From NCBI GenBank assembly GCA_002869205.1, contig PKTJ01000066.1, positions 187-64,186 of the forward strand: DNA of 64,000 nucleotides, in the 5' to 3' direction. The translations under genes and the position numbers were made by a program. Source of the stretch: Candidatus Parcubacteria bacterium (GTDB taxonomy: Bacteria; Patescibacteriota; Patescibacteriia; Magasanikbacterales; UBA922). Below are positions 20,035 to 63,974 of the stretch, in pieces (position 1 is the stretch's first letter; every line of letters starts with the position of its first letter). The notes beneath the pieces are model-generated. The model saw only the letters and a list, made by a program, of their open reading frames with translations, ran no database searches and was not told the DNA's origin.

Positions 20035-21078
20035 TCAGCGAGTTGTGCGGATCGAGGTGTCCCAGTGGTGGTGGTAGATGATGTGACCGAGGTCTGTGAG
20101 CCACGAGACGACACGGATCTTGCCCGACTTGACGAAGGGGTTCAAGAACTGTCGATTCACGAGCGGGACCGTGTCTGCGACGTAGAGGCGATCGAGCGGC
20201 GAGTGATCGAGCTGCAGGTTCTCCACCGCGTCACCACACAGAATGGCGTGCGTAACGATTGCCCAGAATTCGTGGATCTCGGCACGTTCTCGGACGGTGT
20301 TAGCTGTCCTCAGATTCGTGCTGACTGTCGCCGCTTCATCGTCCACAGACAGAACCAGTGCACCTTCGAGTTCATCGACATCTCGATAGATGTCTTTGAT
20401 CTCGACGTCGCGGCTGTTTCCACGACGTTTGTCACCAAACGTCGTGAAGATGTCACAGTCGAGCTCGTCGGCCACGTTCGTGACAGCTTCCTCATAGCGC
20501 TTCTTGGCGCCGTTGTCTGGGTAGTGTACGACGATCTTGTCGTGAGTTTGCAGCGCTTCTTCGAGCGCCTGCTTGAATACGCGCTTGAACATACTCACTT
20601 CGGTGATGAGACCAGGGTCACCGGCCATCACAACCTGCGAAGCGTGGAGATCGACGGAGATGATTCTGTCGAGTCTGCCTTGCGCGGCCGTCTTCATCAG
20701 CGAGACGATGAGGGGTGGAAGAGCGAACTCGTCGTCAGCTTCGTCTCTGTCGGATCGCGAGAGCGGGAAGTAGGCGGTGATGACGGTGATTCGGGCGGCT
20801 CTTCTGCCTGCCACGTGGTTGAGCAAGAAGAATAGGTTCACGAGCATGTCGGGGGTGCCAGGGCCACTGGTCAAGATCACGCAGTCGTGACCGCCGATGT
20901 GCTTCTTCTTCAGCTTGATGAAGGGTTCTTTGCTGCTGCGCCGACCGAAGATCGGAGACGCGATGTCGACAGGCGTCTCTTTCCTTTCGATCTGCTCTTT
21001 GAGAAGGGTGGCGATGTCTTCGAATCCGGGCATGGGAACGAGCGTGAGCGCGCCGTGCTGGCTGTGTCTGTCTTTCAT
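20035..21078 (-). CDS. divergent ribose-phosphate pyrophosphokinase (PRPP synthetase) family protein, second copy
   Basis: Aligns along its whole length to Prs (HDCVILTSG..RITVITAYFPLSRSDRD..DLHASQ..KRRGNSRDVE..SVDDEAATVST). Signature loops are altered: GYARQDRK becomes PLSRSDRD and DTGGT becomes EAATVST. GAGGG ribosome-binding site 8 nt before the ATG. Confidence 0.7.
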   Translation of the reverse strand: MKDRHSQHGALTLVPMPGFEDIATLLKEQIERKETPVDIASPIFGRRSSKEPFIKLKKKHIGGHDCVILTSGPGTPDMLVNLFFLLNHVAGRRAARITVITAYFPLSRSDRDEADDEFALPPLIVSLMKTAAQGRLDRIISVDLHASQVVMAGDPGLITEVSMFKRVFKQALEEALQTHDKIVVHYPDNGAKKRYEEAVTNVADELDCDIFTTFGDKRRGNSRDVEIKDIYRDVDELEGALVLSVDDEAATVSTNLRTANTVRERAEIHEFWAIVTHAILCGDAVENLQLDHSPLDRLYVADTVPLVNRQFLNPFVKSGKIRVVSWLTDLGHIIYHHHWDTSIRTTR

Positions 21079-21158
21079 AACGAAACCCTCGTAATTAGAT
21101 CAAGAAAACGACCTCCCCGGCCGTCTCCTCGATGTGTGAAATGAGCAAACATGTCACC

Positions 21159-21188
21159 ATAATAATTGTTTTGAGTTGTCATGTCAAC
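21159..21188 (-). promoter_or_regulatory. sigma70-like promoter for the prs-like gene (TTGACA-17-TATTAT)
   Basis: Minus-strand -35 at 21183-21188 and -10 at 21159-21164, between the udk terminator and the prs-like ribosome-binding site. Confidence 0.55.
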
Positions 21189-21202
21189 CATAAAAAAAAC
21201 GA

Positions 21203-21233
21203 ACACCCCGAGGCCGAAGCCACCGGGGTTTTA
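21203..21233 (-). terminator. rho-independent terminator downstream of udk
   Basis: Minus strand AAAACCCCGGTGGC-ttcg-GCCTCGGGGTGTT followed by T8. Confidence 0.65.
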
Positions 21234-21239
21234 GTTCGC

Positions 21240-21863
21240 TCAGGATGGGTGGAATCCGTTGAGCATCTGTTCGAGTCCTGCCTGAATGAACAGGCGTGCG
21301 ATCTCGTTGTTCCCGCCGTGTGGCACGATCAGGTTCGCGTGTCTGCGGGTCGGGTGACAGAATTCGTCGTGCATGGGTGCGACAGTGCCTTCCCATTGCT
21401 CGAGGATACCTTCGAGTTTGCGTCCTCGTTCCAGAACGTCTCGTTTGATACGACGCGCGAGACGTGTGTCTCCGGGCGTGTCGACGTAGATCTTGATCTT
21501 GGCGAGGCTTACCAATTCAGGTACAGCGAGCGCGAGTATTCCTTCGGCGATGATGAACGTTTTTGGGTCCACCTGGACACGCTCAGGTTCACGCGAATGC
21601 GTGTTGTAGTCCCAGCGCGGGGTCTGGACCGATACACCATCGACGAGCTCGCGAACGTGTGACACCATTAGGATGTTGTCGAAAGACCCTGGGTGGTCGA
21701 AGTTGCCGTTCTGGACGTAGGGAGACTCGGGGTCGTAATAGAAGTCGTGGCAGATTCGACAGCACTTGTCATCGCCGAGCATTCGGATGATTTCACGCGC
21801 GAGCGTTGTCTTACCAGAACCAGTGCCACCAGCGACGATGATCACGACAGGCGTGTTTTCCAT
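21240..21863 (-). CDS. udk: uridine/cytidine kinase
   Basis: P-loop GGTGSGKTT, NFDHPGSFD, FIIAEGIL, YVDTPGDTRLARRIKRDVLERGR, ANLIVPHGGNN; near colinear with E. coli Udk. Start placed at MENTPVV, which has GGAGG 9 nt upstream. Confidence 0.85.
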   Translation of the reverse strand: MENTPVVIIVAGGTGSGKTTLAREIIRMLGDDKCCRICHDFYYDPESPYVQNGNFDHPGSFDNILMVSHVRELVDGVSVQTPRWDYNTHSREPERVQVDPKTFIIAEGILALAVPELVSLAKIKIYVDTPGDTRLARRIKRDVLERGRKLEGILEQWEGTVAPMHDEFCHPTRRHANLIVPHGGNNEIARLFIQAGLEQMLNGFHPS

Positions 21864-21959
21864 CTTGAGCTTCCTCCAATTTGCAACAAAGCAGGCCATC
21901 GGCCTGCTCCTTTGTTGTATTTCAGAAATATTGTAACGCTACTTTTGTAGTTTGTCAAA

Positions 21960-22220
21960 TTATTCTACATCTCCATTTTCTTTGATTTTTTCGTCTTCGT
22001 ATGGAGCGATGTGTTTTCTATAGAGTTCGAGTTTACATGATTCAAGTGCACCAACAAGTTCGTTCCAGTCTTTATATCTTCCCTCACCTTTGTTCAATAA
22101 AAGAAGTTTTGTGATGGTGTAATTTAGGTCACCAGCACGCTGGTCTGTGCTTATGAGCTTTGCAAGTTCTGTTATTGTTGGATCAAGACGTTCGCGGTCT
22201 TGTGGTAGGATGTATGGCAT
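21960..22220 (-). CDS. hypothetical protein (86 aa)
   Basis: AT-rich, host-like ORF between island A and prs. Confidence 0.4.
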   Translation of the reverse strand: MPYILPQDRERLDPTITELAKLISTDQRAGDLNYTITKLLLLNKGEGRYKDWNELVGALESCKLELYRKHIAPYEDEKIKENGDVE

Positions 22221-22225
22221 ACAAT

Positions 22226-22317
22226 GAGTTTATAAAGTTTAAAAGTTTAAAAAGTATACAAACTAACTATATGTAAAATACTTTACAAACTTTATAACTT
22301 TAGTAACTTTCGAACTC
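22226..22317. repeat. AAAGTT-motif inverted-repeat element (MITE-like), overlaps the 3' end of prs
   Basis: Left arm GAGTTTATAAAGTTTAAAAGTTTAAAAAG and right arm CTTTACAAACTTTATAACTTTAGTAACTTTCGAACTC are imperfect inverted copies; related elements at 53854-53931 and 54097-54183. Confidence 0.5.
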
Positions 22318-23250
22318 ATTAATAGATTTTACACTTTCATTTTTATGGATTTTTGAAATAATTTCAGCAAATCGTTTGCTCACTGACACTATTTCCAAAT
22401 CTCGTAGGTTGTGATGGTCACTTGGAATTGTGTCAGTAGTAATGAATTTGGTGATAGGGGAGTTGTTTAGTTTTTCACTTGCGCCTACACCCAAATTCGC
22501 GTGTATGAAACATGCATCTACACTCACTGCTCCTGCAGAATTGAGGAGAAATTCAGCATCTTCAATCAATGTTCCACCACTAAGTGTTTCGTCATCAATG
22601 ATAAGACATTTTTTATTTTGTACATCACCAATAACACCTTTGATTTTTACTTTTTCATCATTACCAATTCTACGTTTATCCATCATAGCAACAGGTAAGT
22701 CGAGACTGTCGGCATACGATTCCATCATTTTTGCTGCGCCGCTGTCTCCAGCTACGAGAACATAATTAGATAAATCCCAATTCTGTTTTAGGTGTTTGAT
22801 AATATCTGGTGCCGCAATGAGATGATCACACGGTACGCCGAAGAAGCCATGGAGTTGTGCCGAGTGCATCTCCATGATGAGGACACGGTTTGCACCAGCT
22901 GTCTGTAGCATGTCGGCTATGAGTTTGGCAGTAATACAAATTCGTGGTTGATCTTTTTTGTCTGATCGTGCATATGAAAAGTAGGGGAGAACTGCGGTAA
23001 TTCTTTTTGCAGAAGCATCTCTGAGTGTTCTGATATACATGAGAAGTTCCATGATATGGATGTGTACCGGTGTTGTGTGAGTTTGTATAACAAACACATC
23101 ATCTCCTCGCACAGCCTCATCAACAGTCACAAATTTATCTCCATTACTAAATGTTATAGAAGATGTTTGTGTCTCTTCTATATCCAAGTGTTCACAGATT
23201 TTCTTTACAAATCCTTTGTGGCTGCTACCACCAATAATTTTGAGGGACAT
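22300..23250 (-). CDS. prs: ribose-phosphate pyrophosphokinase (host copy)
   Basis: Canonical motifs DDVFVIQTHT, RITAVLPYFSYARSDKK, MEMHSAQ, IIDDETLSGGTL; AT-rich codon usage. Confidence 0.9.
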   Translation of the reverse strand: MSLKIIGGSSHKGFVKKICEHLDIEETQTSSITFSNGDKFVTVDEAVRGDDVFVIQTHTTPVHIHIMELLMYIRTLRDASAKRITAVLPYFSYARSDKKDQPRICITAKLIADMLQTAGANRVLIMEMHSAQLHGFFGVPCDHLIAAPDIIKHLKQNWDLSNYVLVAGDSGAAKMMESYADSLDLPVAMMDKRRIGNDEKVKIKGVIGDVQNKKCLIIDDETLSGGTLIEDAEFLLNSAGAVSVDACFIHANLGVGASEKLNNSPITKFITTDTIPSDHHNLRDLEIVSVSKRFAEIISKIHKNESVKSINEFESY

Positions 23251-28482: not shown

Positions 28483-28701
28483 ATGACGTCAAAGGATGTG
28501 GTTGTCACCATCACGATCGGAGATGCAGAAGGTGATCAAGGTATCAAGGTGTCCGGAGATGTTCACCTGACTCACAACGTCGCGAACAGGGCGCTGAATC
28601 TGTTCGCCAGCACGATGCTTCATGCGCTCGGAGAGAGTAGCATGCTCGCGCGTAACTTCTGGAGTGCGATCTCGAATCTCGCATCAACGGTCCGTAAGTA
28701 G
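28483..28701 (+). CDS. GC-rich island B: hypothetical 72-aa protein inserted inside the NAD operon
   Basis: GC-rich codons in an AT-rich operon. GGAAGGAG ribosome-binding site 6 nt upstream; TTGACT-17-TATGTT promoter 2 bp from the nadC start. A tiny ORF (MPMEVQYI, 28737-28763) with its own GGAGGA site follows. Confidence 0.55.
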   Translation: MTSKDVVVTITIGDAEGDQGIKVSGDVHLTHNVANRALNLFASTMLHALGESSMLARNFWSAISNLASTVRK

Positions 28702-28830: not shown

Positions 28831-30180
28831 TTATTTACTTAATTCCATCATTTTATCTAAACTTATTTTTGCTTTTTGTAATACTTCTTTACCAAGATTA
28901 ATAATTTGATCTTTACGTGGATTCTTAAGTGCAGTGAGAATATCTTCTAACTTTATTTTTTTCATATACGGACAGAGCTGGCAGCTACCAACAATGTGTT
29001 TATTCGGGAATTCTGTTTGTACCCTGTCGGTAATACCGCATTCAGTAATTAGCATGTAGTGCTCAGAAGGGTTGTCTTTTACATAGTTCAACATATCACT
29101 CGTGCTACCAACTAGATCAACCGAGTCAATGACAGAGGGGGTGCATTCATAATGTGCTAATATTTTTGTATGAGGAAATTGAGCTCTAATTTTTTTTACT
29201 GCGCGTTTATCAAATTGTTCATGCACTATGCATACACCATCCCATAAAATTAACTTTTTTTTCGTCAATTTTTGTAAGTTATGCCCCATAAGCATGTCGG
29301 GAATAAAAATAATTTCATCGTTTGGAAGACTTTCGATAATTTTGAGTGCATTTGAACTGGTGACACATATATCACTTTGAGCTTTTACTTCCGCACTCGT
29401 GTTTACATATGTCAAAATAGGAACTCCTGGATGTTTTTCTTTTAGATTTTGTACATCTTTGGCAGTGATTGAGTCAGCGAGTGAACATCCTGCAACTGCA
29501 GGAATAAGGACTTCTTTTTCTGGACTCAAGATTTTTGCAGTCTCACCCATGAAGTGTACTGAGCAAAAAATAATTTTCTTTGCGCTGTGTTCTGCCGCAA
29601 TTTTACTAAGCCCATATGAATCTCCAAGGAAGTCTGCTACACCATACATAATGTCTGTTGTTTGGTAAGAGTGGGCGAGTATGATGGCATCTTGTTCACG
29701 CTTTAATTTATTTATTTCAAGTGTTGTTGGTGCAATGCTTAGACAGTAGCCAAATGTCCTTTTTGTTTTTTTTAATTTTTCAAATAGACGTGCAGCTTCT
29801 TCACGTATCTCGGTTGCGCTGATGTTAATATTTTTTTTAATCATTTTTACGTTGTAATTTTTTTCTTCAAATAATTTTTTTACTACATCATTTCCTGTAT
29901 ATACTGTGTCAAATTCTCCAACAGTATTTTTGACATGATTAACCCATTCATTTTCGTTATGAATATCAGGAATGGCGATGATTTGATAATTTAAATTTAA
30001 TCCATCTAGATTAGATTCTATGTTTTTTTTACGCTCCTCAAAACTTTGTGGATTGTCATCGGTTTCACTATATTGTGAGCTACCAACACCAATAATAATC
30101 TCACTTTCTGAGATTTGTTTAATGGCATCTAAATGCCCATCATGAAATGGCTGGAATCGTCCGATGAATAGTGCTTTCAT
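28831..30180 (-). CDS. nadA: fusion protein: N-terminal NadM-type NMN adenylyltransferase plus C-terminal quinolinate synthase
   Basis: N-terminus GRFQPFHDGH..ISATEIR (cytidylyltransferase, NadM-like). C-terminus ILAHSYQ, VADFLGDS, CSVHFMGETAKIL, TYVNTS, VTSSNA and Cys ligands of NadA. Confidence 0.8.
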   Translation of the reverse strand: MKALFIGRFQPFHDGHLDAIKQISESEIIIGVGSSQYSETDDNPQSFEERKKNIESNLDGLNLNYQIIAIPDIHNENEWVNHVKNTVGEFDTVYTGNDVVKKLFEEKNYNVKMIKKNINISATEIREEAARLFEKLKKTKRTFGYCLSIAPTTLEINKLKREQDAIILAHSYQTTDIMYGVADFLGDSYGLSKIAAEHSAKKIIFCSVHFMGETAKILSPEKEVLIPAVAGCSLADSITAKDVQNLKEKHPGVPILTYVNTSAEVKAQSDICVTSSNALKIIESLPNDEIIFIPDMLMGHNLQKLTKKKLILWDGVCIVHEQFDKRAVKKIRAQFPHTKILAHYECTPSVIDSVDLVGSTSDMLNYVKDNPSEHYMLITECGITDRVQTEFPNKHIVGSCQLCPYMKKIKLEDILTALKNPRKDQIINLGKEVLQKAKISLDKMMELSK

Positions 30181-54190: not shown

Positions 54191-55627
54191 ATGACAAAAC
54201 AAACAAAAATTGTATGTACCATAGGTCCAGCATGTGAAACCGTGGAGACGCTCGAAAAAATGGTGAAAGCGGGGATGAATGTTGCACGATTGAATTTTTC
54301 TCATGGTTCATACGAGCACCATAAAAAACTTATAGCCAATATTCGTGAAGTAGAAAAACGTACAGGCGAACCTGTCGCAATTGTGCAGGATTTGCAAGGA
54401 CCAAAAATTCGTATTGGGGATTTGGGTGAAAAGGGTATCAAGCTTATACCGGGTGAAGATATATATTTTTCTACTGACATGACCGATAGGCAATCTATTC
54501 CTATTCAGTATGAACACTTGCATGAATATATAAAACGCGGCGAGAAGATGTTGCTCGACGATGGAAAAATGGAAGTAAAAATTTTGGATGTAGAAGGAAA
54601 GAAAATAAGAACAAAAATTATCGTAGGTGGTCTGTTGCTCGCGCACAAGGGAATCAATATTCCCGAATCCGATTTGTCTCAAATGCAAGTGCTTACATCA
54701 AAAGACAAAAGTGATGTGCGCTTTGGTGTGGAAAATGGTGTGGATATGATTGCGTTGTCCTTTGTCATGAAGCCAGATGATATTTTGGATCTACGTTTTC
54801 ATGTAAAACAAGTGGAATCAGAATTAGATATTGTAGGCAATCAGCCAATTCGACTTATTGCTAAAATAGAAAAACCAGAAGCAGTAGAACGTATGGAGGA
54901 GATTGTTCAGGTGGTAGATGGAATCATGGTGGCTCGTGGAGATCTAGGACTTGAGATCCCAGCCGAAGAAGTTCCTCTTGTGCAGAAAAAACTAATTGAC
55001 ACAGCGATGGAAGCTGGAAAGCCAGTGATTGTTGCTACGCAGATGCTTGATTCTATGCAGCATAATCCACGTCCAACGCGTGCTGAGGTGTCTGATGTAT
55101 CAAATGCCGTTATTGATCATACTGATGCAGTCATGCTTTCCAATGAGACGGCAGCAGGGGAATATCCTGTTGAGACTGTCGCAACTATGGCACGAATCAT
55201 TGCAGAGACTGAAAAATCTCATTATGATGATTTGCCATTTCGAGAACCAAAGACAAAGATTCACAAGATCGACGATACTATTAGTGGATTGTCTCGAGTC
55301 ATGGCAGAAAAGATTGGTGCAAAACTTATTTTGGCTGCTTCCATCTCTGGTGAAACAGGCCGACTCATTTCTCGTTATCGTCCCGAGTTTCCTATTGTTG
55401 TTGCGACAAGTACAGATCGTGTGCAACGTCAATTGAATTTATCATGGGGTGTACGACCGTTTATCCTCATGCCGTGTAATTCTATTGAAGAGCTTGTGGA
55501 TCGTGCAGTGATACATCTAAAAAAAGAAGATTTGGTCAAAATTAATGACAAAATTATTGTGGTAGCAGGGGAGCCAGTCGGACATGCAGGACATGTGAAT
55601 TTATTGGAAGTTAGAGAAGTAAAGTAG
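54191..55627 (+). CDS. pyk: pyruvate kinase
   Basis: KIVCTIGPA, MNVARLNFSHG, MVARGDLG motifs; 478 aa. Confidence 0.95.
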   Translation: MTKQTKIVCTIGPACETVETLEKMVKAGMNVARLNFSHGSYEHHKKLIANIREVEKRTGEPVAIVQDLQGPKIRIGDLGEKGIKLIPGEDIYFSTDMTDRQSIPIQYEHLHEYIKRGEKMLLDDGKMEVKILDVEGKKIRTKIIVGGLLLAHKGINIPESDLSQMQVLTSKDKSDVRFGVENGVDMIALSFVMKPDDILDLRFHVKQVESELDIVGNQPIRLIAKIEKPEAVERMEEIVQVVDGIMVARGDLGLEIPAEEVPLVQKKLIDTAMEAGKPVIVATQMLDSMQHNPRPTRAEVSDVSNAVIDHTDAVMLSNETAAGEYPVETVATMARIIAETEKSHYDDLPFREPKTKIHKIDDTISGLSRVMAEKIGAKLILAASISGETGRLISRYRPEFPIVVATSTDRVQRQLNLSWGVRPFILMPCNSIEELVDRAVIHLKKEDLVKINDKIIVVAGEPVGHAGHVNLLEVREVK

Positions 55628-55711
55628 TGCGTAGTAGGGGGTGTGCCTGCCCGTCCGAAGCCTCGGCGTAGGAGGGTGAATATGCTTGAGGTGAGAGAGG
55701 TGGGGTAAATA
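55628..55711 (+). pseudogene. GC-rich relic of a second pyruvate kinase C-terminus (..VVGGVPARPKPRRRRVNMLEVREVG*) immediately after the pyk stop
   Basis: In-frame translation matches the host pyk tail VVAGEPVGHAGHVNLLEVREVK, with G/C at the synonymous positions. Confidence 0.5.
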
Positions 55712-55727
55712 ATATTTTAAACAAAAA

Positions 55728-55756
55728 AACATCGCCTGTATGGCGGTGTTTTTAAT
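55728..55756 (+). terminator. rho-independent terminator
   Basis: CATCGCC-tgta-TGGCGGTG followed by a T-run. Confidence 0.6.
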
Positions 55757-55864
55757 TATACTAACTTCGCTCTGTTTGGACTCATTATCTTCGTCTTTTA
55801 ACAAAGCTAATGAATCGGGCGGGAGCGAAGGTAGCATGGTTGTGAGTAGCAGTCGCGCCGTCCG

Positions 55865-56575
55865 CTAGTTCACGGTGTGGTCGTCGCGCCACCTGGCACA
55901 GATGTCGTCCGGGTACTTCCACGTACCGTCGTCTCGGGTGTCGAGACAGTGGATCATCGGATCTTCCTGTGAGGTAGAGATGTTGTAGGATGTGCCATCT
56001 GGTGTGATGATGATGACCGTCGAGGTGATCGGCTTGTCACCTTCATGTTTCCAGTCAGTCGGTCCACGATACGGGCGAGGGGAGATGTCGAGGTGGGTGT
56101 TTTCATCGCAGTTCTTACCCTCGATGTAGAAGCAGCGACCGTATTCCGGGATGGGATAGATGCCGTGAAACTCTATGTGACAGACCGCGTGCGTGATGCA
56201 CTCGTGAGGAAGTTCCTCACCGAGACAGTCACTCACGGTGGCGCACTCGTAGTTGTCGTAGTCTGGCGCGGGGAGCTCCGACGCTTCGATCGAATCGACG
56301 TAGATGAACGAGTCGACTTCGATTTCACCCACGAGAACCCACTCGTAGATGGATCCGTCCGGCGTCCAGAAGGGGCCGTCGAGCCAGATGACTTCATCAC
56401 GCTTGGGTTGTGCCGCCATCGTGGCGGCCTTGTCCAGCGTCTTCATCTTATCCGTCGAGTCCTGCTGCTCGGCTTCCAGGGACGCGCCGAATCCGATCGC
56501 GATCGACGCGAACAGGACGAGGGTCATCATAGGGACGTTGACGATGGTTCTGATGCTGGCCGCTCGGTTGCTCAT
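55865..56575 (-). CDS. secreted/membrane-anchored cysteine-rich hypothetical protein (~236 aa)
   Basis: Signal/TM segment MMTLVLFASIAIGFGASLEA and 10 Cys. Start placed at MSNRAAS, which has AGGAG 7 nt upstream. The plus-strand ORFs 56045-56710 and 56349-56807 are Arg-rich antisense artefacts. Confidence 0.6.
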   Translation of the reverse strand: MSNRAASIRTIVNVPMMTLVLFASIAIGFGASLEAEQQDSTDKMKTLDKAATMAAQPKRDEVIWLDGPFWTPDGSIYEWVLVGEIEVDSFIYVDSIEASELPAPDYDNYECATVSDCLGEELPHECITHAVCHIEFHGIYPIPEYGRCFYIEGKNCDENTHLDISPRPYRGPTDWKHEGDKPITSTVIIITPDGTSYNISTSQEDPMIHCLDTRDDGTWKYPDDICARWRDDHTVN

Positions 56576-56626
56576 TTTCGAGCTCCTCATTGTGTCCGTG
56601 GGCTTTTTCGAGCCCTGTTGCGATTC

Positions 56627-56818
56627 TTATCTTCCGAGACTGCAGGTGCCACAGTGCTTGCCGCAGTATCCTCCGCCCTGGCAAATGCCACGAGGTTCTT
56701 TGGGAGGTAGTGGCGGAAGGTCCTTGAACCTTTCTTCCATCGGAAGCAGCGGAGCTTTCTCCTGGTCTCCTTCCGGAACTGCGATTTCTTCTGGGTCTGT
56801 GGTATGACGAGAGGTCAT
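56627..56818 (-). CDS. small Cys-rich protein (63 aa from MTSRHTT; C-terminal CQGGGYCGKHCGTCSLGR)
   Basis: AGAGGAG 6 nt before the internal ATG; four Cys in a C-x5-C-x3-C-x2-C arrangement; sits 50 bp upstream of the secreted protein gene. Confidence 0.5.
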   Translation of the reverse strand: MTSRHTTDPEEIAVPEGDQEKAPLLPMEERFKDLPPLPPKEPRGICQGGGYCGKHCGTCSLGR

Positions 56819-56963
56819 CGGTGACTCCTCTATGCTGGAGAGTACGTTAATCATTTTTTACCAAAAAAACGGTATTTTGTCAATGTTATGTAAGAATAGT
56901 GGGACGTTTTGATTCCCGATTATTTTATGGTATACTTATGACCACTATTTCTAACCTTATTTT

Positions 56964-59900
56964 ATGGTTGCAAAGGGGGCGAAAAAATCTCGAAAAGACA
57001 AACATATTTTGTGGTTCAAAGAAATCGGCATCAAGGATGTTCCACTTGTTGGTGGAAAGAATGCAAGTCTTGGAGAGATGTATAACACGGTTACAAAAAA
57101 AGGCATCAATGTCCCAAATGGTTTTGCAGTTACCGCTGCGGCATATTGGGATTTTTTGGATAAAACAAATCTGAAAGCAAAGATAAAAAAAGAATTAAAA
57201 GATCTCGATGTAACAAATGTTCGTGAGCTTGCACGTGTAGGAAAAAAAGTTCGCAACATGGTTCTTGCAGCAAAATTTCCTGCACATTTGGAAAAGGAAG
57301 TGGAAAAAGCATATGCAGAATTATCTAAACTAGAAAAAACAAAAAATATCGCAGTTGCTGTGCGATCTAGTGCAACTGCAGAAGATTTGCCTGATGCGAG
57401 TTTTGCTGGTCAGCAAGAAACATATTTGAATATAAAAGGCGTCAAGTCACTTCAGACTGCAGTAAAAAAGTGTGTCGCGTCGCTCTTTACGAATCGCGCC
57501 ATCTCATATCGTGAGACAAAAGGATTTGACCATCTCACTGTTGCCCTGTCAGTTACGGTTCAGGTGATGGTTCGTTCAGATGTGGGTTCTTCTGGAGTAC
57601 TCTTTACACTCGATACAGAATCAGGTTTTCCTGGAGTGGTACTCATCAATTCATCCTACGGTCTTGGAGAATACGTGGTAAAGGGTCGGGTAACACCAGA
57701 TCAATTTTATGTTTTCAAAGAAGGAATAAAACAAGGCAAAAAATCTATTATTAGTAAAATTATTGGTTCAAAAGAAGTAAAACTTGTATATGGAGCCACT
57801 AGTGGTACGAAGCAACTTGCAGTAAAGAAAGCTGATCAAAATAAATTTTCTATTACACCAGATGAGGTTATTAAATTGACGAAATGGGGAATGCAGATTG
57901 AAGAGCACTATAAACGACCTCAAGATATTGAATGGGCAAAAGATGGTAAGACAGGAAAGCTCTATATTGTCCAAGCTCGACCTGAGACAGTAAAATCTCA
58001 TACAAATAAATCGGTGATTGAGACATATATTCTCAAGAAAAAGGGTAAACAAGCACTTACCGGTATTTCAGTAGGACAAAAGATTGGTGCAGGAAAAGTT
58101 CGTGTGATTGACAATCCAAAGCAGATGAAACAGTTCAAAAAAGGCGAAGTGCTCGTGACTCGTATCACTGATCCAGACTGGGAACCAATCATGCGTATTG
58201 CAAGTGCTATTGTCACAGAGCAGGGTGGTAAGACAAGTCATGCTGCTATTGTAAGTCGTGAGCTTGGTGTGCCATGTGTTGTTGGTGCGCGTGCTGCACG
58301 CAAGACTTTGAAAACAGGGAAACAGGTTACCGTGAGTTGTGCTGAGGGCGATGAGGGTATTATTTATAATGGTATTCTTCCGTTTGAAGTCAAGAAAACT
58401 GAAATTAAAAAAGTAGAAAAAACAAAAACAAAAATCATGATGAATGTTGGTGATCCTGACAATGCATTTAGTTTGTCATTTTTACCAAATAATGGCGTAG
58501 GTCTGGCACGTGAAGAATTTATTTTTTCCAATTTTATCCGTATTCATCCACTTGCGCTCGTTCACTACAATAAGCTCAAGGATAAGAAAGCCAAGAAAAA
58601 GATTGCTGAGATGACAAAAGGGTATAAGAAAAAGACTGACTATGCAGTAGATAAGCTTGCGGAAGGTATTGCACGAATTGCAACAGCATTTTATCCAAAT
58701 GAAGTAATTGTTCGCTTGTCTGACTTCAAAACAAATGAATATGCAACACTTCTTGGTGGAAAAGAATTTGAACCAAAAGAAGAAAACCCAATGATTGGAT
58801 GGCGTGGGGCAAGTCGTTATTATTCAAAAGAATATAAGCCAGGATTTAAGATTGAGTGTGAAGCACTCAAGAAAGTTCGTAATGAATGGGGTCTGACCAA
58901 TGTGATTACTATGGTGCCATTTTGTCGTACACCAGAAGAAGGAAAAAACGTGCTCAAGACTATGGCAGACTTTGGGCTCAAACAAGGTGAGAATGACCTC
59001 AAAGTATACGTAATGTGTGAAATCCCAAGTAATGTTATCTTGGCAGAAGAGTTTGCAAAATTATTTGACGGATTTAGTATTGGGTCAAATGATTTGACTC
59101 AGCTTACTTTGGGTGTTGATCGTGATTCATCTCTAGTGAGTCATGTGTATAGTGAAAAAAATAAGGCAGTAACTAAATTGATTCGTGATGTGATTCGTGT
59201 TGCCCACAAACATAAGCGAAAAGTAGGTATTTGTGGACAAGCTCCGAGTGATTATCCTGAATTTGCAGAGTTTTTGGTACGTGAAGGTATTGATAGTATT
59301 TCTCTTAATCCTGATACCGTTGTTTCTACGCGTGAACGTATTGCCTATGTAGAAAAAACTCTAGGAAAGAAAGGTAAGAAGACACACAAATCATATCTTG
59401 GTCTTGTTGCCGGTCTTGCTGTCCTTTCTGCTAGTCTGATGATGGTGGGTGGTGGCTGTGATTCAATTCGAGGTGATTTACCAACCCCTCATACCGACCT
59501 CATCGATATGAGCCCTGCAGAGATTCGTGAACGTGTAGAGAAAAAATTAAATGAAACACAGGAATTAGAAAAACAAAAACCAACACAAGAATTAAAAGTA
59601 AATAGTTTTGAACATTTTTCAATCAAATATCCACAAGAATGGTCTGTAGAAAATTGGAATGGTGGTGTCACGATGAGAAATAATGAGACAGGGGAGTATG
59701 TGAGTTTGTTTGATCAGCTTGTTGGTCACCCTGTGGCAGAAGGTGTGAAGGAGATTGTTACAGTTGGTGGAAAAGATGCAACGAGGTATGTAGAAGATTA
59801 TAAGGGTGACGATACAGAGTCAGCATCATTTACCGTAGTTGAGATTGATATGGAAGGATATGTTTTTGAAATCAACAGCAATGCAGATAATTTTGATGAT

Positions 59901-60098
59901 ATCTTAGACACGTTGGTATTTGTCTCAGAAGATTCGCCAGACAGACCACTAACACACTGGGATGTGAGAGAGAAGCGTGTGTGTATACAGATGATCACCT
60001 ATGCTCGCCAAGGAAGTGAGGGTATGTGTGAAGTATTTCCTACACCGTGTGACGTACCTGATGGGTGGAATGTCTGTGACGCAACAGACCTAGAATAA
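56964..60098 (+). CDS. ppsA: phosphoenolpyruvate synthase (pyruvate, water dikinase) with ~240-aa C-terminal extension
   Basis: VGGKNASLGEM start and PEP-utilizing His domain (GGKTSHAAIVSRELGVPCVVG). The canonical end near SLNPDTVV is followed in-frame by KKGKKTHKS-YLGLVAGLAVLSASLMMVGGGC (a lipoprotein-like signal peptide) and a Cys-containing domain. Confidence 0.85.
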   Translation: MVAKGAKKSRKDKHILWFKEIGIKDVPLVGGKNASLGEMYNTVTKKGINVPNGFAVTAAAYWDFLDKTNLKAKIKKELKDLDVTNVRELARVGKKVRNMVLAAKFPAHLEKEVEKAYAELSKLEKTKNIAVAVRSSATAEDLPDASFAGQQETYLNIKGVKSLQTAVKKCVASLFTNRAISYRETKGFDHLTVALSVTVQVMVRSDVGSSGVLFTLDTESGFPGVVLINSSYGLGEYVVKGRVTPDQFYVFKEGIKQGKKSIISKIIGSKEVKLVYGATSGTKQLAVKKADQNKFSITPDEVIKLTKWGMQIEEHYKRPQDIEWAKDGKTGKLYIVQARPETVKSHTNKSVIETYILKKKGKQALTGISVGQKIGAGKVRVIDNPKQMKQFKKGEVLVTRITDPDWEPIMRIASAIVTEQGGKTSHAAIVSRELGVPCVVGARAARKTLKTGKQVTVSCAEGDEGIIYNGILPFEVKKTEIKKVEKTKTKIMMNVGDPDNAFSLSFLPNNGVGLAREEFIFSNFIRIHPLALVHYNKLKDKKAKKKIAEMTKGYKKKTDYAVDKLAEGIARIATAFYPNEVIVRLSDFKTNEYATLLGGKEFEPKEENPMIGWRGASRYYSKEYKPGFKIECEALKKVRNEWGLTNVITMVPFCRTPEEGKNVLKTMADFGLKQGENDLKVYVMCEIPSNVILAEEFAKLFDGFSIGSNDLTQLTLGVDRDSSLVSHVYSEKNKAVTKLIRDVIRVAHKHKRKVGICGQAPSDYPEFAEFLVREGIDSISLNPDTVVSTRERIAYVEKTLGKKGKKTHKSYLGLVAGLAVLSASLMMVGGGCDSIRGDLPTPHTDLIDMSPAEIRERVEKKLNETQELEKQKPTQELKVNSFEHFSIKYPQEWSVENWNGGVTMRNNETGEYVSLFDQLVGHPVAEGVKEIVTVGGKDATRYVEDYKGDDTESASFTVVEIDMEGYVFEINSNADNFDDILDTLVFVSEDSPDRPLTHWDVREKRVCIQMITYARQGSEGMCEVFPTPCDVPDGWNVCDATDLE

Positions 60099-60135: not shown

Positions 60136-61173
60136 ATGCATATGATGTTATCTCAAAAAGAAAAATTATTTTTAATACCTCTTGGGCTTGTTGCTATTGT
60201 GGTAGCTGCGGTTGGTGGGTATGTTATTTCTGAAGTGGGTTTTTCTGGAGGTGGTGAGGAAAGACAAATAGTTTCATATAGTGAAGAATCACCTGATCAA
60301 GATGAAAATAAGATCGATACTAAAGTGGAGGATCAGATGATTTCGTGTGTCATGGTAGACAAAAGTTTGGATATTGTTCCAGACGAAGGTCTGGGTGTGT
60401 ATTACAAGACACGCTTGTTTCCTGTAGAGACAAATGTTAGGCATGATATTTTTGTAAATGATTCAGCAATTATTGCGTTTAAACATTTTAATGGAGGAGG
60501 GGACCCCTATAATTATGATGAGGAAAAGTGGAGTAAGTTTGCTGGACAAGGACCTTCTTATTTTGTCGAAATGCTAGATTTTTCTGCACCTAGGAATGTT
60601 TCTGTTATCCCAACTTTTTCTATTCCTCATGAGGTTATTACCAATGACAATTTTATGGGTAATATCACAAATGTGAGTTATGGTGATAGTTGGTTTATTT
60701 TCTCTCGGGGGTTTGCAGCGTTTACTGGTTCGGTGGTGGATCAGAGATTGACAGAGGTTGCCTATGATCGTAAGTTTCGAGAGATTGTTATTCCAGAAGA
60801 ATACACTGCTGATCCAGAATTTCGTTCTGGTCCGGTTCATGGTTTTACTGTTAATAATAATACGTCAACCATAGGAGACATGCTTGGTCTTTTGCGTGAT
60901 GATACCATTGTGTTTTCTTTGCAAAAAAATACTAGTACATATATTGGTTATGAAATAAAAAATGACTCATGGATAGAAGTTTCTGTAGATGAGATATATG
61001 ATGTTGATATGACAGTCTATGAAGAGGTTGGTGGACCACGTATATACAAACCCCTTGATCTTATCAAGGAGTATGGTTGTTTTGCACTTCCAACACCGCG
61101 TGGTGATATGGTTTTTACGTCGCATGAGCTTGGTAATCTGAATGACGAGATGGATGTGTGGTTTGCTCGATAG
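60136..61173 (+). CDS. hypothetical membrane-anchored protein (345 aa)
   Basis: N-terminal TM helix; no known motif. Confidence 0.45.
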   Translation: MHMMLSQKEKLFLIPLGLVAIVVAAVGGYVISEVGFSGGGEERQIVSYSEESPDQDENKIDTKVEDQMISCVMVDKSLDIVPDEGLGVYYKTRLFPVETNVRHDIFVNDSAIIAFKHFNGGGDPYNYDEEKWSKFAGQGPSYFVEMLDFSAPRNVSVIPTFSIPHEVITNDNFMGNITNVSYGDSWFIFSRGFAAFTGSVVDQRLTEVAYDRKFREIVIPEEYTADPEFRSGPVHGFTVNNNTSTIGDMLGLLRDDTIVFSLQKNTSTYIGYEIKNDSWIEVSVDEIYDVDMTVYEEVGGPRIYKPLDLIKEYGCFALPTPRGDMVFTSHELGNLNDEMDVWFAR

Positions 61174-61292
61174 GAATATAACATAATATCAAAAAATGAT
61201 CCGGAGAGGGTCATTTTTTATTTGCTTTTTATTTTTGGTCGTGTTAGGTTTTATATATTGTCAACAATGTTCTCCACCAGATGAGGTCTGAT

Positions 61293-62045
61293 ATGAGCAT
61301 CAGGTTTACGTGTGAAGTCGAGACGCCTGACGGTGTCGTGCGATTCGTTCTTGATTCGTGGCGTTCTTCGTCGGAGGATGATCGAACCATCGAGCCGGAG
61401 TTCTATGTGGATTACTGTGCGGATGGTCAGATCCCGCAGGGTCCTCATCACGAGGTCGAGATCCTCGAGCCGGCGAAGATCGGTGGTCACGAGCACGAAG
61501 AAGTCATCCACTATCACATCAATCGTGGTGGTGGGCAGTTCGTGTGCTGGACCGGTTCTCTGCCGTCGCTCAGTGCGGTCAGTACCATGCTTCGCGTGTG
61601 GTGTGCTGGGACTGCCTTCACCATGGCGACTGGTAAGGACTTCACGGTCGAGTTCGAGGGTGATTTCGATCAGATCGTACGCGGCCTTTCTGAGGCCGGA
61701 TACAAGGTAGTTCTGTGTCGTAACGACCTGCAGCAGTTCGAAATTAGTATGACGTTTTCTCATAACGTGACATGGTCTGCTTTCAGCTCACCGCTGGTCA
61801 AGGAGATCGTGGCGCGGCTGCCGCGTGAGCAAGAAGACGTCTTGCGTGCAGTAGTAGAACACTTGCGTTCTCGCACACCACACGAGAACGGCGCGATCGA
61901 AGACAGTCTCATGGTTGCCTGGGGTGTGTTCTGTCAGAGGCTTCGGGGTAATTTGGACCTCAGCGAGCCTATCGCGACGCCATTGGCGATCGGTGATCTG
62001 AGCGGGTGGGTTCTGTGGGCTGAAGAAAGCGCCAACATGTGCTGA
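61293..62045 (+). CDS. hypothetical cytoplasmic protein (250 aa)
   Basis: ORF with GC-rich codon usage; start placed at MSIRFT, which has GAGGT upstream. Confidence 0.5.
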   Translation: MSIRFTCEVETPDGVVRFVLDSWRSSSEDDRTIEPEFYVDYCADGQIPQGPHHEVEILEPAKIGGHEHEEVIHYHINRGGGQFVCWTGSLPSLSAVSTMLRVWCAGTAFTMATGKDFTVEFEGDFDQIVRGLSEAGYKVVLCRNDLQQFEISMTFSHNVTWSAFSSPLVKEIVARLPREQEDVLRAVVEHLRSRTPHENGAIEDSLMVAWGVFCQRLRGNLDLSEPIATPLAIGDLSGWVLWAEESANMC

Positions 62046-62118
62046 AGGGAGGGTGTTGTGGCACGTTCACCACCAAGGGGAAGCCCTGACTGATCGCACC
62101 GAACAGTCGGGGACAGTC

Positions 62119-62190
62119 AAAAACAGTCTAGTTTATAGACTGTTTTTTTGTGTTTTTACCCTTGACATAAGGGTTTTTTTGTGATACAAC
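62119..62190 (+). promoter_or_regulatory. terminator hairpin (AAAAACAGTCTA-gttta-TAGACTGTTTTT) followed by sigma70-like promoter TTGACA-17-TACAAC
   Basis: Perfect palindrome 62119-62150; -35 at 62162-62167, -10 at 62185-62190; AGGAG at 62227-62231 before the ATG at 62239. Confidence 0.6.
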
Positions 62191-62238
62191 TCGAGCAGGT
62201 TTGAGAAAGCGAAACCAGGAAACAACAGGAGTGACATC

Positions 62239-63060
62239 ATGTCGCATAAGAATAGTTCGCGTTCGTTCATGCAGAACCTCGGTACGTACCGTGTGCAGCG
62301 TAGAATCTTCATTTTTTCGACACTTATCTCTCTGATCGTGATGTGTTCACTGCGTTCGGATAGCAGCGACGACCAAGAACAAGAGGTCGCTGTGTCAGCC
62401 ACTCCTGTCATCGTGCCGACGCAGTCCGGTCGTCCGGCGATTCCTGGACCGCTCGAGATTCCGAGCGATGAATTCAGGAAGTGGTCGGCCAAAGAGCTTG
62501 ATCGAATCGTGCGTACACACCCGAGTGAATTGATCTCTCGAGATCTGCTCGGACATGTCGAGGCACGTCCTCGCCGAGTTCATCCGAGTTTCGCTCTCGT
62601 CGAGACACCGGTACCACGCATGGCACAAGCGTTTTGCGATCTTCTGCCAAGCAGTGGAACTCGCGTGGGCTTCACCATCTTTCCGAGACTGTTCTTTGCA
62701 GACAATGTCTCGGATGTGGATCGTTACACCGCGCTTTACCATGAGTATGACCATATCGCCGAGATGCTGGCAGACCCATCCCTGTGTCCGTTTTTCTCAG
62801 AGACATGGGTCGGCACGTCTCTCGAGGTCCGTAGGTTTTTTGACCTCGAGATGCAGGCCTACAGCGCGGCATGTGAATTCGAGATCGTACATGAGCTTGT
62901 GGACCGGGCGCACCAGTCGGGCTGTCGCATATATCGCGATCAGGGTCCGGAGACTTATCTGAGGCTCACCTCTACACGTCTCGAAGCTATGCCGATCTTC
63001 GCGCCGTACCGGAACAAGCTTCTGGGATGGGCGCGTGAGTACATCGAACATAATCGTTAG
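62239..63060 (+). CDS. membrane-anchored HExxH-motif protein (putative zinc metallopeptidase-like)
   Basis: N-terminal hydrophobic segment IFIFSTLISLIVMC and a YHEYDH (HExxH) motif; otherwise unknown. Confidence 0.5.
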   Translation: MSHKNSSRSFMQNLGTYRVQRRIFIFSTLISLIVMCSLRSDSSDDQEQEVAVSATPVIVPTQSGRPAIPGPLEIPSDEFRKWSAKELDRIVRTHPSELISRDLLGHVEARPRRVHPSFALVETPVPRMAQAFCDLLPSSGTRVGFTIFPRLFFADNVSDVDRYTALYHEYDHIAEMLADPSLCPFFSETWVGTSLEVRRFFDLEMQAYSAACEFEIVHELVDRAHQSGCRIYRDQGPETYLRLTSTRLEAMPIFAPYRNKLLGWAREYIEHNR

Positions 63061-63147
63061 GCTGAGGAGGTGCCTCAAGAACCCGACGCCCAAAGCGTCT
63101 GGCTGGTCCCGCAGGGATCATTCAGCGAGCGTGCATCGGGATCAGTC

Positions 63148-63209
63148 AAAAACAGCTTTTTCTAAAAGGCTGTTTTTGTTTTGACCCACTCACAAAAACA
63201 TGTTAAAAT
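63148..63209 (+). promoter_or_regulatory. second copy of the terminator-promoter spacer module (hairpin, then TTGACC-17-TAAAAT)
   Basis: CAGTCAAAAACAGC...GCTGTTTTTGTTTTGACCC parallels the module at 62110-62167. Confidence 0.55.
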
Positions 63210-63350
63210 AATCCACCTGTGATAAGGCGCGTGAGCGTTTTGTCACGGTTTTTTGTAATGTTGAGACAGAGGAGTGGGTTTGATAGCTTTGTTTGTGTCG
63301 GGATTGGCCCGTCGCTGGCAAGGTGTCTAACTCACTTTTCGAGGTAGTCC

Positions 63351-63974
63351 ATGCGCGTTTGTAGCTTGTTCTCGATCCTGGTTCTCAGTGTCTCTTTCTC
63401 CTTCCTCGCTGCGTGCAACGATGATTCGTCTGGCGGCAGCGGTACGGTGGAGGAGACTGAGTACATCTCCTGCAATCCGGCTATGGGAGGTGACTGCCCG
63501 GATGGATCCTCGTGCGCTCGTCTCGAAGGCGATGCGCACACGCTCTCGGTATGCGTCCAGGACGAGCACGTGCCCTGTGTCGCCGACTTCGAGTGCGATG
63601 GCGGGCAGTGTATCTCCGTCCAGGGTCTTCAGCAGACCATCTGCACTCAGTCCTTGGCTGAAGATATCGGCTGTCCGTTCTACGGCTTTGATGAGCTCGA
63701 GTACGAGGTGAAGGTCGGGAACGAGACGTTCTACTTGCTCACCGAGTATGTCTCGGAATCGTGTGAGCTGTCCATGAGGCTGAAGTCCGACCTTAGCAAC
63801 ATGGCCTGGCATTACGTCTTGTACGTCGATGAGGATGACAGCCTCCGTGGCGTCGTCGGCAATGGCGCCCAGGTCGAAGTCCTTCACCTCAGCTTGGGCT
63901 GGATCCAGGTTCGTGAGACCGATCCGGACGGCGGCGCCGACCCGATCGAATACACCTTCTTCCTCGTACCGTAG
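63351..63974 (+). CDS. cysteine-rich lipoprotein, hypothetical
   Basis: Signal peptide with canonical lipobox FLAAC and about 14 Cys. The minus-strand ORF 63327-63887 is judged antisense. Confidence 0.55.
   Translation: MRVCSLFSILVLSVSFSFLAACNDDSSGGSGTVEETEYISCNPAMGGDCPDGSSCARLEGDAHTLSVCVQDEHVPCVADFECDGGQCISVQGLQQTICTQSLAEDIGCPFYGFDELEYEVKVGNETFYLLTEYVSESCELSMRLKSDLSNMAWHYVLYVDEDDSLRGVVGNGAQVEVLHLSLGWIQVRETDPDGGADPIEYTFFLVP

Follow-up and report, generated by a model that had tools for sequence, protein, structure and literature searches.

The spacer between the pyruvate kinase gene (pyk) and a PEP-synthase-type gene (pps) of a marine Candidatus Parcubacteria / Magasanikbacteria-like MAG is occupied by a pair of minus-strand genes, which is best explained as a lineage-restricted accessory operon of ~1.1 kb: a resident, fast-evolving gene for a Cys4 peptide combined with swappable envelope-protein cargo. 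This reading is held with about even confidence. According to it, a host-type promoter, divergent from pps, would drive a single transcript, which would encode first a non-exported 63-aa peptide and then an acidic protein with 8 Cys and about 200 residues in its mature part, exported by Sec or anchored at the N-terminus, and which would end in a conserved long hairpin and an intrinsic terminator. The peptide gene, promoter, hairpin and terminator would be residents of the locus, subject to vertical inheritance and fast evolution, and the genes between them would be exchangeable cargo whose products are always targeted to the envelope.

The window, i.e. the whole stretch of 64,000 nucleotides (64 kb) that was analysed, belongs to a contig of ~39% GC. 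About 30 of its other ORFs, scanned with Pfam, are housekeeping genes (NAD synthesis, translation, proteases, transporters), and the ORFs scanned in the flanks of the pair comprise pyk, pps, a TPR protein, an M16 peptidase and orphans. The features of the locus, in window coordinates, are the following:

54191-55627, plus strand: pyruvate kinase gene (pyk), left neighbour.
55723-55753, no single strand: bidirectional intrinsic terminator (A-run, stem CATCGCC/GGCGGTG, T-run), read by eye and from a fold.
55755-55840, minus strand: conserved ~86-nt 3' hairpin, directly after the stop of the large gene.
55865-56575, minus strand: 236-aa orphan gene (N-terminal Sec-type signal or anchor plus 8-Cys domain), NCBI hypothetical protein C0581_05225.
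56576-56626, minus strand: intercistronic spacer of 51 nt, containing an AGGAG and a weak stem-loop of 5 bp, but no U-tract.
56627-56818, minus strand: 63-aa peptide gene, its ATG after AGAGGAG, the protein ending in CQGGGYCGKHCGTCSLGR.
56825-56831, minus strand: AGAGGAG, RBS for the 63-aa ORF, separated by 6 nt from its ATG at 56818.
56855-56883, minus strand: predicted sigma-70-type promoter, divergent from pps, read by eye from the sequence.
56964-60098, plus strand: PEP-synthase-type gene (pps), right neighbour.

The initial annotation had described a gene of ~63 aa with an AGAGGAG site, followed 50 bp later by a gene of ~236 aa with an AGGAG site, the strand being left unstated. Both were recovered on the minus strand, the gap between the two ORFs being 51 nt, and both genes are real. 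They lie in a GC-rich patch from ~55.84 to 56.85 kb, with 55-65% GC (57% overall) as opposed to ~38-40% around it.

Evidence for the proposed reading comes from a sister species, represented by L002 (Parcubacteria SI034_bin149) and by L082, a 191-kb JGI contig 99% identical to L002. The same arrangement of pyk and pps is found there, with flanks of about 80% identical DNA and a GC-rich insert at the same site. The insert contains an orthologue of the peptide gene (12370-12561, minus strand), with the reading frame, the length and the four Cys of the small ORF conserved. The first gene downstream, its RBS overlapping with the stop codon of the orthologue, encodes a tail-anchored protein of 68 aa, and the next a 35-aa TM peptide; a 75-aa membrane protein follows after a second hairpin, terminator and promoter. 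None of these three cargo proteins has any Cys, and no relative of the 236-aa protein was found in the L002 insert. Because the peptide gene and its bracket are resident and the cargo has been swapped, the two genes of the window appear to be co-expressed neighbours and no dedicated pair. The idea of a dedicated two-gene module was thus not borne out, the partner being replaced in the sister species (L002 = L082) by unrelated, Cys-free mini membrane proteins; the 236-aa protein is without any credible homologue in the collections searched, and therefore co-occurrence of the pair in other genomes, which had been suggested as a check, is impossible.

Further relatives were also compared at this site. 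In L003, L005, L011, L012 and L032, pyk and pps are separated by an empty spacer of 107-207 bp, and these empty spacers of distant relatives would show the earlier state of the site. Other relatives bear different cargo: a GC-rich gene for a 358-aa Cys-rich lipoprotein together with one for a 1901-aa protein in L014, genes for 1997-aa and 660-aa proteins in L007, an ORF which by its appearance resembles an IS200-type transposase in L021, and small inserts or ORFs in L004 and L008. Since the spacer is empty in some relatives and filled with other cargo in others, it can be regarded as a probable insertion hotspot, often for envelope proteins.

At the upstream end of the operon, the predicted promoter consists of TTGACA (56883-56878), a 17-nt spacer ending in TG, and TAAAAA (56860-56855). 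A consensus scanner did not call it, the cause being that the last base of the -10 box is A. In the alignment, the promoter block TTGACAAAAT...TGRTAAAAAATGATT is conserved in L002, together with the first codons of the peptide gene, at the level of the flanks, and the equivalent of the peptide-gene RBS is GGAGAG. A direct repeat flanking the island (TTTTAAACAAAAAAAC/TTTTTACCAAAAAAAC) was considered as a target duplication and rejected, its second copy being the -10 region of this conserved promoter. A 75-aa extension of the small ORF (to 56854) is unlikely because its ATG falls inside the predicted -10 box, and 63 aa is the likely product of the gene. In the intercistronic spacer, the AGGAG that would act as RBS of the 236-aa gene lies at 56583-56587, with a 7-nt spacer to the start; the fold of this region is unremarkable (z = -1.4) and the scanner found no terminator-like site between the two genes, which are probably co-transcribed.

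In the 63-aa peptide, the N-terminal half is acidic and the C-terminal tail, of the form C-x5-C-x3-C-x2-C, is basic; the peptide also contains an LLPMEERF...PPK motif and is devoid of a hydrophobic segment (maximum KD -0.01). Its L002 orthologue, also of 63 aa, is 49% identical and keeps 4/4 Cys, as well as the start MTS, LLPMEERF, PPK and GGY. The spacing of the Cys is not fixed (x5/x3/x2 in the window vs x6/x4/x2 in L002), and the neighbouring His appears as H-C-x2-C in the former and as H-x2-C-x2-C in the latter. Divergence between the window and L002 was estimated by Nei-Gojobori counts. For the peptide gene, pN is 0.34, pS 0.63 and dN 0.45 (61 codons compared, with dS near saturation), whereas pyk shows a pS of 0.58 and a dN of 0.04, and pps a pS of 0.56 and a dN of 0.06. 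The peptide gene seems to be a fast-evolving yet constrained coding gene, because its dN/dS is about 0.3, a value obtained from two lineages and 61 codons, with dS near saturation; it would also be about as old at this site as its pyk and pps neighbours.

As to relatives, a search of 5.8 billion clustered proteins with the peptide retrieved only itself, a profile built from both peptides added no new relative, a metagenome scan returned the sister strain only, and scans of viral contigs contained no relatives. Moreover, no zinc-finger or precursor-family model of Pfam or NCBIfam matched either peptide. The family is known from two lineages only, the window species and the sister species, and would thus be a new peptide family with two members. 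In the cytoplasm, the Cys4 tail would most likely bind a metal (Zn or Fe-S), as suggested by the four clustered Cys by themselves, their spacing being variable and the zinc-finger models unmatched.

A different function for the same peptide, unlikely although several of its traits fit, is that of a bacteriocin-like or RiPP-like precursor, whose cationic product would be exported and cross-linked through its Cys. In this precursor, an anionic leader with LLPMEERF as recognition motif would precede a Cys4 core of ~20 aa, and the downstream genes would have immunity or accessory functions. The segregation of charge is indeed pro-peptide-like and conserved (N-terminal half/Cys-rich part: -4.9/+3.1 in the window, -4.0/+4.1 in L002), the short leader motif and all the Cys are kept as the remainder diverges, the locus is hypervariable, and the neighbours in L002 are tiny TM proteins (35, 68 and 75 aa) of a size typical for immunity proteins. 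In these respects (small precursor-like peptide, conserved leader motif, Cys-rich cationic C-terminus, variable locus with tiny TM proteins adjacent in L002) the locus recalls class II bacteriocins, SCIFF/ranthipeptides and methanobactin-like peptides. However, the peptide has neither a Sec signal nor a double-glycine leader: there is no GG before the Cys core and the sole GGG sits inside the Cys cluster, between Cys1 and Cys2, so that no leader cleavage motif is found. Furthermore, no radical-SAM enzyme or other maturase and no C39/ABC or other peptide exporter was detected in the ~30 Pfam-scanned ORFs of the 64-kb window, no precursor family of NCBIfam or Pfam was matched, and the neighbour in the window is a 236-aa secreted protein, unlike an immunity protein. 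The bacteriocin or immunity function proposed in the initial annotation loses its ground with these results, given that no GG leader, exporter or maturase appeared among the scanned features.

Defensin-type host-defence precursors combine an anionic propiece with a cationic Cys-rich part. The peptide would resemble them by analogy, in that its acidic N-terminal half balances the basic Cys-rich C-terminal part; it differs from them in having no signal peptide, in its bacterial origin and in its four Cys only, and no sequence relationship is to be expected.

The second gene encodes C0581_05225, which resides on a 74.6-kb contig. The codon-position GC of the ORF (GC1/2/3 = 0.54/0.42/0.77) is that of a real gene in GC-rich DNA, and the long plus-strand ORFs antisense to it show the shadow (mirror) of this pattern. 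The N-terminus of the protein, MSNRAASIRTIVNVP-MMTLVLFASIAIGFGA-SLEA, comprises two Arg and then a 16-residue hydrophobic stretch, at residues ~16-32, with a maximum Kyte-Doolittle value of 2.21 over 15 residues and the peak at residue 19. The features of a Sec (type I) signal are present, namely a basic n-region, an h-region, small residues near the cleavage site and no lipobox Cys. All the Cys come after the hydrophobic segment, the first of them at residue 111, in an acidic post-signal part of ~200 aa (pI 4.3). An exported or membrane-anchored product is supported by the hydropathy and inspection of this segment, by which a cleaved signal and an N-terminal anchor are not distinguishable. 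The earlier claim of a signal peptide is upheld in this wider sense of a signal or anchor, and the ten Cys then attributed to the protein have to be corrected to eight, at positions 111, 117, 126, 132, 148, 156, 210 and 226.

Concerning its relatives, only the protein itself was found among 5.8 billion clustered proteins, and HMMER over 1.84 billion representatives gave the self-hit and P0003. The latter, a 2125-aa acidic low-complexity, eukaryote-like repeat protein, was rejected as a homologue, the match being compositional. Nothing above noise was obtained from Pfam, NCBIfam, PHROGs, PADLOC or PDB sequences, nor was any relative found by tblastn in phage and plasmid collections or in viral contigs; tblastx of the island against all loci gave a match at the level of the signal peptide only. 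No internal repeat was detected in the protein (shared TPDG motif, p = 0.13). AlphaFold2 without an alignment, applied to the full length and to the mature part, reached a pLDDT of 33 both times and yielded no usable model. The protein is thus best described as a probable singleton secreted protein with no family, and the earlier statement that neither product has a recognisable family is in agreement with the databases (Pfam, NCBIfam, PHROG, PADLOC, PDB). Most likely it would act extracellularly, stabilised by disulfides, in interactions with a surface, a host or a competitor.

Within the window, no paralogues were found; a 16-aa match at 62002 was rejected as such, the stretch being out of frame. 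The locus was also considered as the target of a diversity-generating retroelement and rejected, since no segment of 55700-56960 occurs a second time in the window and a template repeat is thus lacking there.

At its 3' end, the large gene is followed by the long hairpin, with an invariant outer stem (CUUCGCUC/GAGCGAAG, 8-11 bp), a symmetric internal loop of 5-6 nt per side (6/6-nt here), a 9-bp inner stem and a variable tip. Its folding z is -8.4 vs shuffles. Three copies have been identified, one in the window and two in L002, with 4 compensatory pairs in the inner stem; those of L002 are 450 bp apart and each of them closes one gene block. When the three copies were combined in a covariance model, no further copy came to light in the window and 32 other related loci (619 kb in total), and Rfam contained no match. 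The hairpin was rejected as a genome-wide element, as no further copies were found, and is read as a locus-specific 3' structure, with a likely role in mRNA stabilisation or as a recombination scar. The adjoining terminator could serve both pyk (plus strand) and the island operon (minus strand). It was not called by the scanner, and an equivalent terminator hairpin, with another stem sequence, is present in L002.

The form of the hairpin is one of the reasons to consider a mobile foreign cassette of recent acquisition, derived from a high-GC donor and placed at an attC-like (integron/CALIN-like) structure through site-specific recombination, a possibility which nevertheless appears distinctly improbable. 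In common with integron cassettes and CALIN, an imperfect hairpin, better preserved in structure than in sequence, closes short blocks of one or a few orphan genes. The hairpin resembles attC in its layout (basal stem, symmetric unpaired spacer, second stem, variable tip), and in the sister genome two such blocks stand in tandem. The composition of the island (57% GC vs 39%) and an 81-nt insertion beside the locus, duplicating the 3' end of pyk, point in the same direction. However, the defining RYYYAAC/GTTRRRY boxes are absent next to the hairpin spacer: the stem adjoining the spacer is the invariant CTTCGCTC/GAGCGAAG, and TAAC/GTTA is found 7 nt further out, out of the defining position. Compared with the integron/CALIN criterion (IntI nearby, or at least two attC within 4 kb), the scanned flanks contain no integrase, nor do the ~30 Pfam-scanned ORFs of the window, and there is one hairpin in the 64-kb window, two in L002 and none in 32 other related loci. 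Each block brings, moreover, its own promoter and terminator, unlike integron cassettes, and searches of viral contigs, phages and plasmids gave no match.

The age of the GC-rich genes is a further argument against a recent cassette. In the last island of the window, a GC-rich gene for a lipoprotein (63351-63974) has an orthologue in L082, with a pS of 0.58, like its flanks, and a GC3 of 0.76 and 0.78 in the two species. Since the pS of the peptide gene (0.63) and of this lipoprotein gene equals that of pyk and pps (0.58 and 0.56), both genes would have been in place since the species split. The island therefore does not appear to be a recent import, its synonymous divergence being equal to that of the flanks. 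Thus, of the foreign island that had been proposed at first, the island stands as regards composition (55-65% vs ~38-40% GC), and its foreign origin is doubtful.

With even less probability, the small protein could be a zinc-ribbon or anti-sigma-like regulator with the secreted protein as its specific target, as the initial annotation had also suggested. The four clustered Cys with a nearby His, the lack of an export signal and the retention of the gene as the first of the operon in the two lineages would be compatible with such a role. Nevertheless, the H-x3-C-x2-C (ZAS) spacing, i.e. an HxxxCxxC motif, is missing, a pair of CxxC knuckles is likewise absent, zinc-finger models are unmatched, the presumed target is not conserved, and no adjacent sigma factor or DNA-binding domain was found among the scanned ORFs, nor any sigma factor in the ~30 Pfam-scanned ORFs of the window. 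An artefact, either a chimeric assembly or ORFs arising by chance in GC-rich sequence, is hardly credible. In its favour are the singleton status of the large protein in all databases, the long ORFs that GC-rich DNA yields in several frames, and a GC3 of no more than 0.50 in the small ORF. Against it, a separately deposited JGI contig (L001, 2542 bp) is equal to window 56365-58906 at 99.92%, with two mismatches, and spans the transition from the GC-rich patch to pps; a high-GC insert occupies the corresponding site of the sister genome and carries the orthologue of the peptide gene together with the promoter and the hairpin; and codon-position GC, RBS and signal segment point to one frame. Some explanation other than the accessory operon and the four alternatives weighed above is rather unlikely.

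Returning to the accessory operon, its closest known counterparts are the strain-variable islets of Patescibacteria/CPR, in which genomic islands and HGT have been reported (PMC12455944). The likeness concerns the atypical composition and accessory distribution, the orphan products with signal or TM segments, and the site between housekeeping genes, with other cargo in relatives. There are also differences: the island described here is not recent, judging from a synonymous divergence equal to that of the flanks; its peptide gene, promoter and 3' hairpin stay in residence while the cargo changes; and there is no mobility gene among the ORFs scanned. In its manner of working, the object is comparable to the strain-variable islets of many bacteria, Patescibacteria among them, and it is a member of no named family.

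If this reading is right, the locus would be an ordinary accessory operon that varies between strains and encodes envelope proteins, in a genome that is reduced and of the symbiont type. What it adds, within a familiar kind of locus, would be a peptide family of two members and one secreted singleton protein. It would also imply that compositional 'islands' in such genomes need not be recent imports, and it would mark the pyk-pps spacer as a cargo hotspot, with a bearing on the diversification of the CPR surface and secreted repertoire.

As for the high-GC islands of the window in general, a phage origin was considered and found to be unsupported, the Prs-like protein of island A having phage hits of only 25-28% identity. 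On a more speculative level, with a small chance of being correct, the locus may exemplify a gene class of Magasanikbacteria-like CPR, made up of accessory genes that evolve fast, most of them encoding exported Cys-rich or membrane proteins and some encoding nucleotide-salvage enzymes, and which would keep a GC3 of 0.65-0.9 in genomes of 37-43% GC over synonymous divergences of 0.6-1.1, under host-type promoters; in this class, the peptide gene and the 3' hairpin would form a fixed expression bracket for swapped cargo. If so, a force specific to the gene class would have to act on these genes, the candidates for its action on GC3 being selection, exchange within a separate pool, or a strong GC bias of conversion at hotspots of recombination. 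In a second pair of relatives (L009/L005), the pattern seen in the lipoprotein gene recurs: the GC-rich genes display a dS of 0.62-0.76, vs 0.56 for pyk, and a GC3 of 0.64-0.79, vs 0.41-0.43.

The spacer between the pyruvate kinase gene (pyk) and the PEP-synthase-type gene (pps), occupied in the window by the two-gene operon, carries a different cargo among relatives of this genome, as is illustrated by three related CPR loci:

L021, 1644-2619: an ORF resembling an IS200/RAYT-type transposase and flanked by palindromic repeats, the resemblance having been judged by eye
L014, 11588-18647: a GC-rich gene for a Cys-rich lipoprotein, together with a 1901-aa protein
L007, 11544-19681: two giant secreted proteins

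At the 3' end of pyk (window 55588-55708), an insertion of ~81 nt is found with respect to the sister genome (L002), and the gene's final ~39 nt occur in two copies, separated by a G-rich spacer of 42 nt. The AT-rich copy terminates pyk at 55627, and the GC-richer one (~55670-55708) is the copy nearest to the gene end in L002. The fold of the inserted region is unremarkable (z = -0.5), and the duplication looks like a scar of recombination or insertion.

The interval from pps to a conserved GC-rich lipoprotein gene (window 60136-63060) is a second variable spot, directly adjoining the pyk-pps one: it contains three genes (a 345-aa transmembrane protein and two orphans of 254 and 273 aa), none of which aligns to the sister genome, where the corresponding interval (2000-2740 of its 191-kb contig, L082) has merely ~560 bp. 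The PEP-synthase-type protein lying between both spots (window 56964-60098; 1044 aa) itself links a cytoplasmic enzyme to an apparently extracytoplasmic domain, which is an unusual combination. Its three catalytic Pfam domains reach residue ~796 and are followed by a transmembrane segment and a C-terminal domain of ~200 aa with a 4-Cys motif at its end (...CIQMITYARQGSEGMCEVFPTPCDVPDGWNVC...), an extension also kept in L082.

Further patches of 53-58% GC, under AT-rich promoters and terminators of host type, were found in the window:

20035-21899: a Prs-like protein and a uridine kinase
28483-28701: a 72-aa orphan
61281-63974: two orphans and a Cys-rich lipoprotein

Similar patches occur in L082 (1318-1953) and in the related CPR loci L009, L005, L014, L020, L030 and L032; among their genes are ones for secreted Cys-rich proteins and for lipoproteins, and a phosphoribosyltransferase-like ORF (assigned by eye). 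The genes of these patches are not recent imports, because synonymous divergence in GC-rich orthologous pairs equals that of pyk, with GC3 (GC at the third codon position) still held at 0.64-0.79.

The GC-rich and divergent Prs-like gene (window 20035-23250 region) has a stronger match in the phage protein family PHROG 619 (E = 2e-18) than in the Prs domains of Pfam (E ~1e-6 to 1e-5), and the phage relatives found are all remote (25-28% identity). Together with the GC-rich uridine kinase gene, it adjoins the native AT-rich prs (22300-23250) and a DUF6899 gene.

Finally, a single 449-aa ORF (window 28831-30180), located in a cluster of NAD-synthesis genes (nadB-like, nadC and nadE), joins a cytidylyltransferase-like (NMNAT-type) domain to quinolinate synthase NadA. 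The genome carrying this fusion ORF is small.
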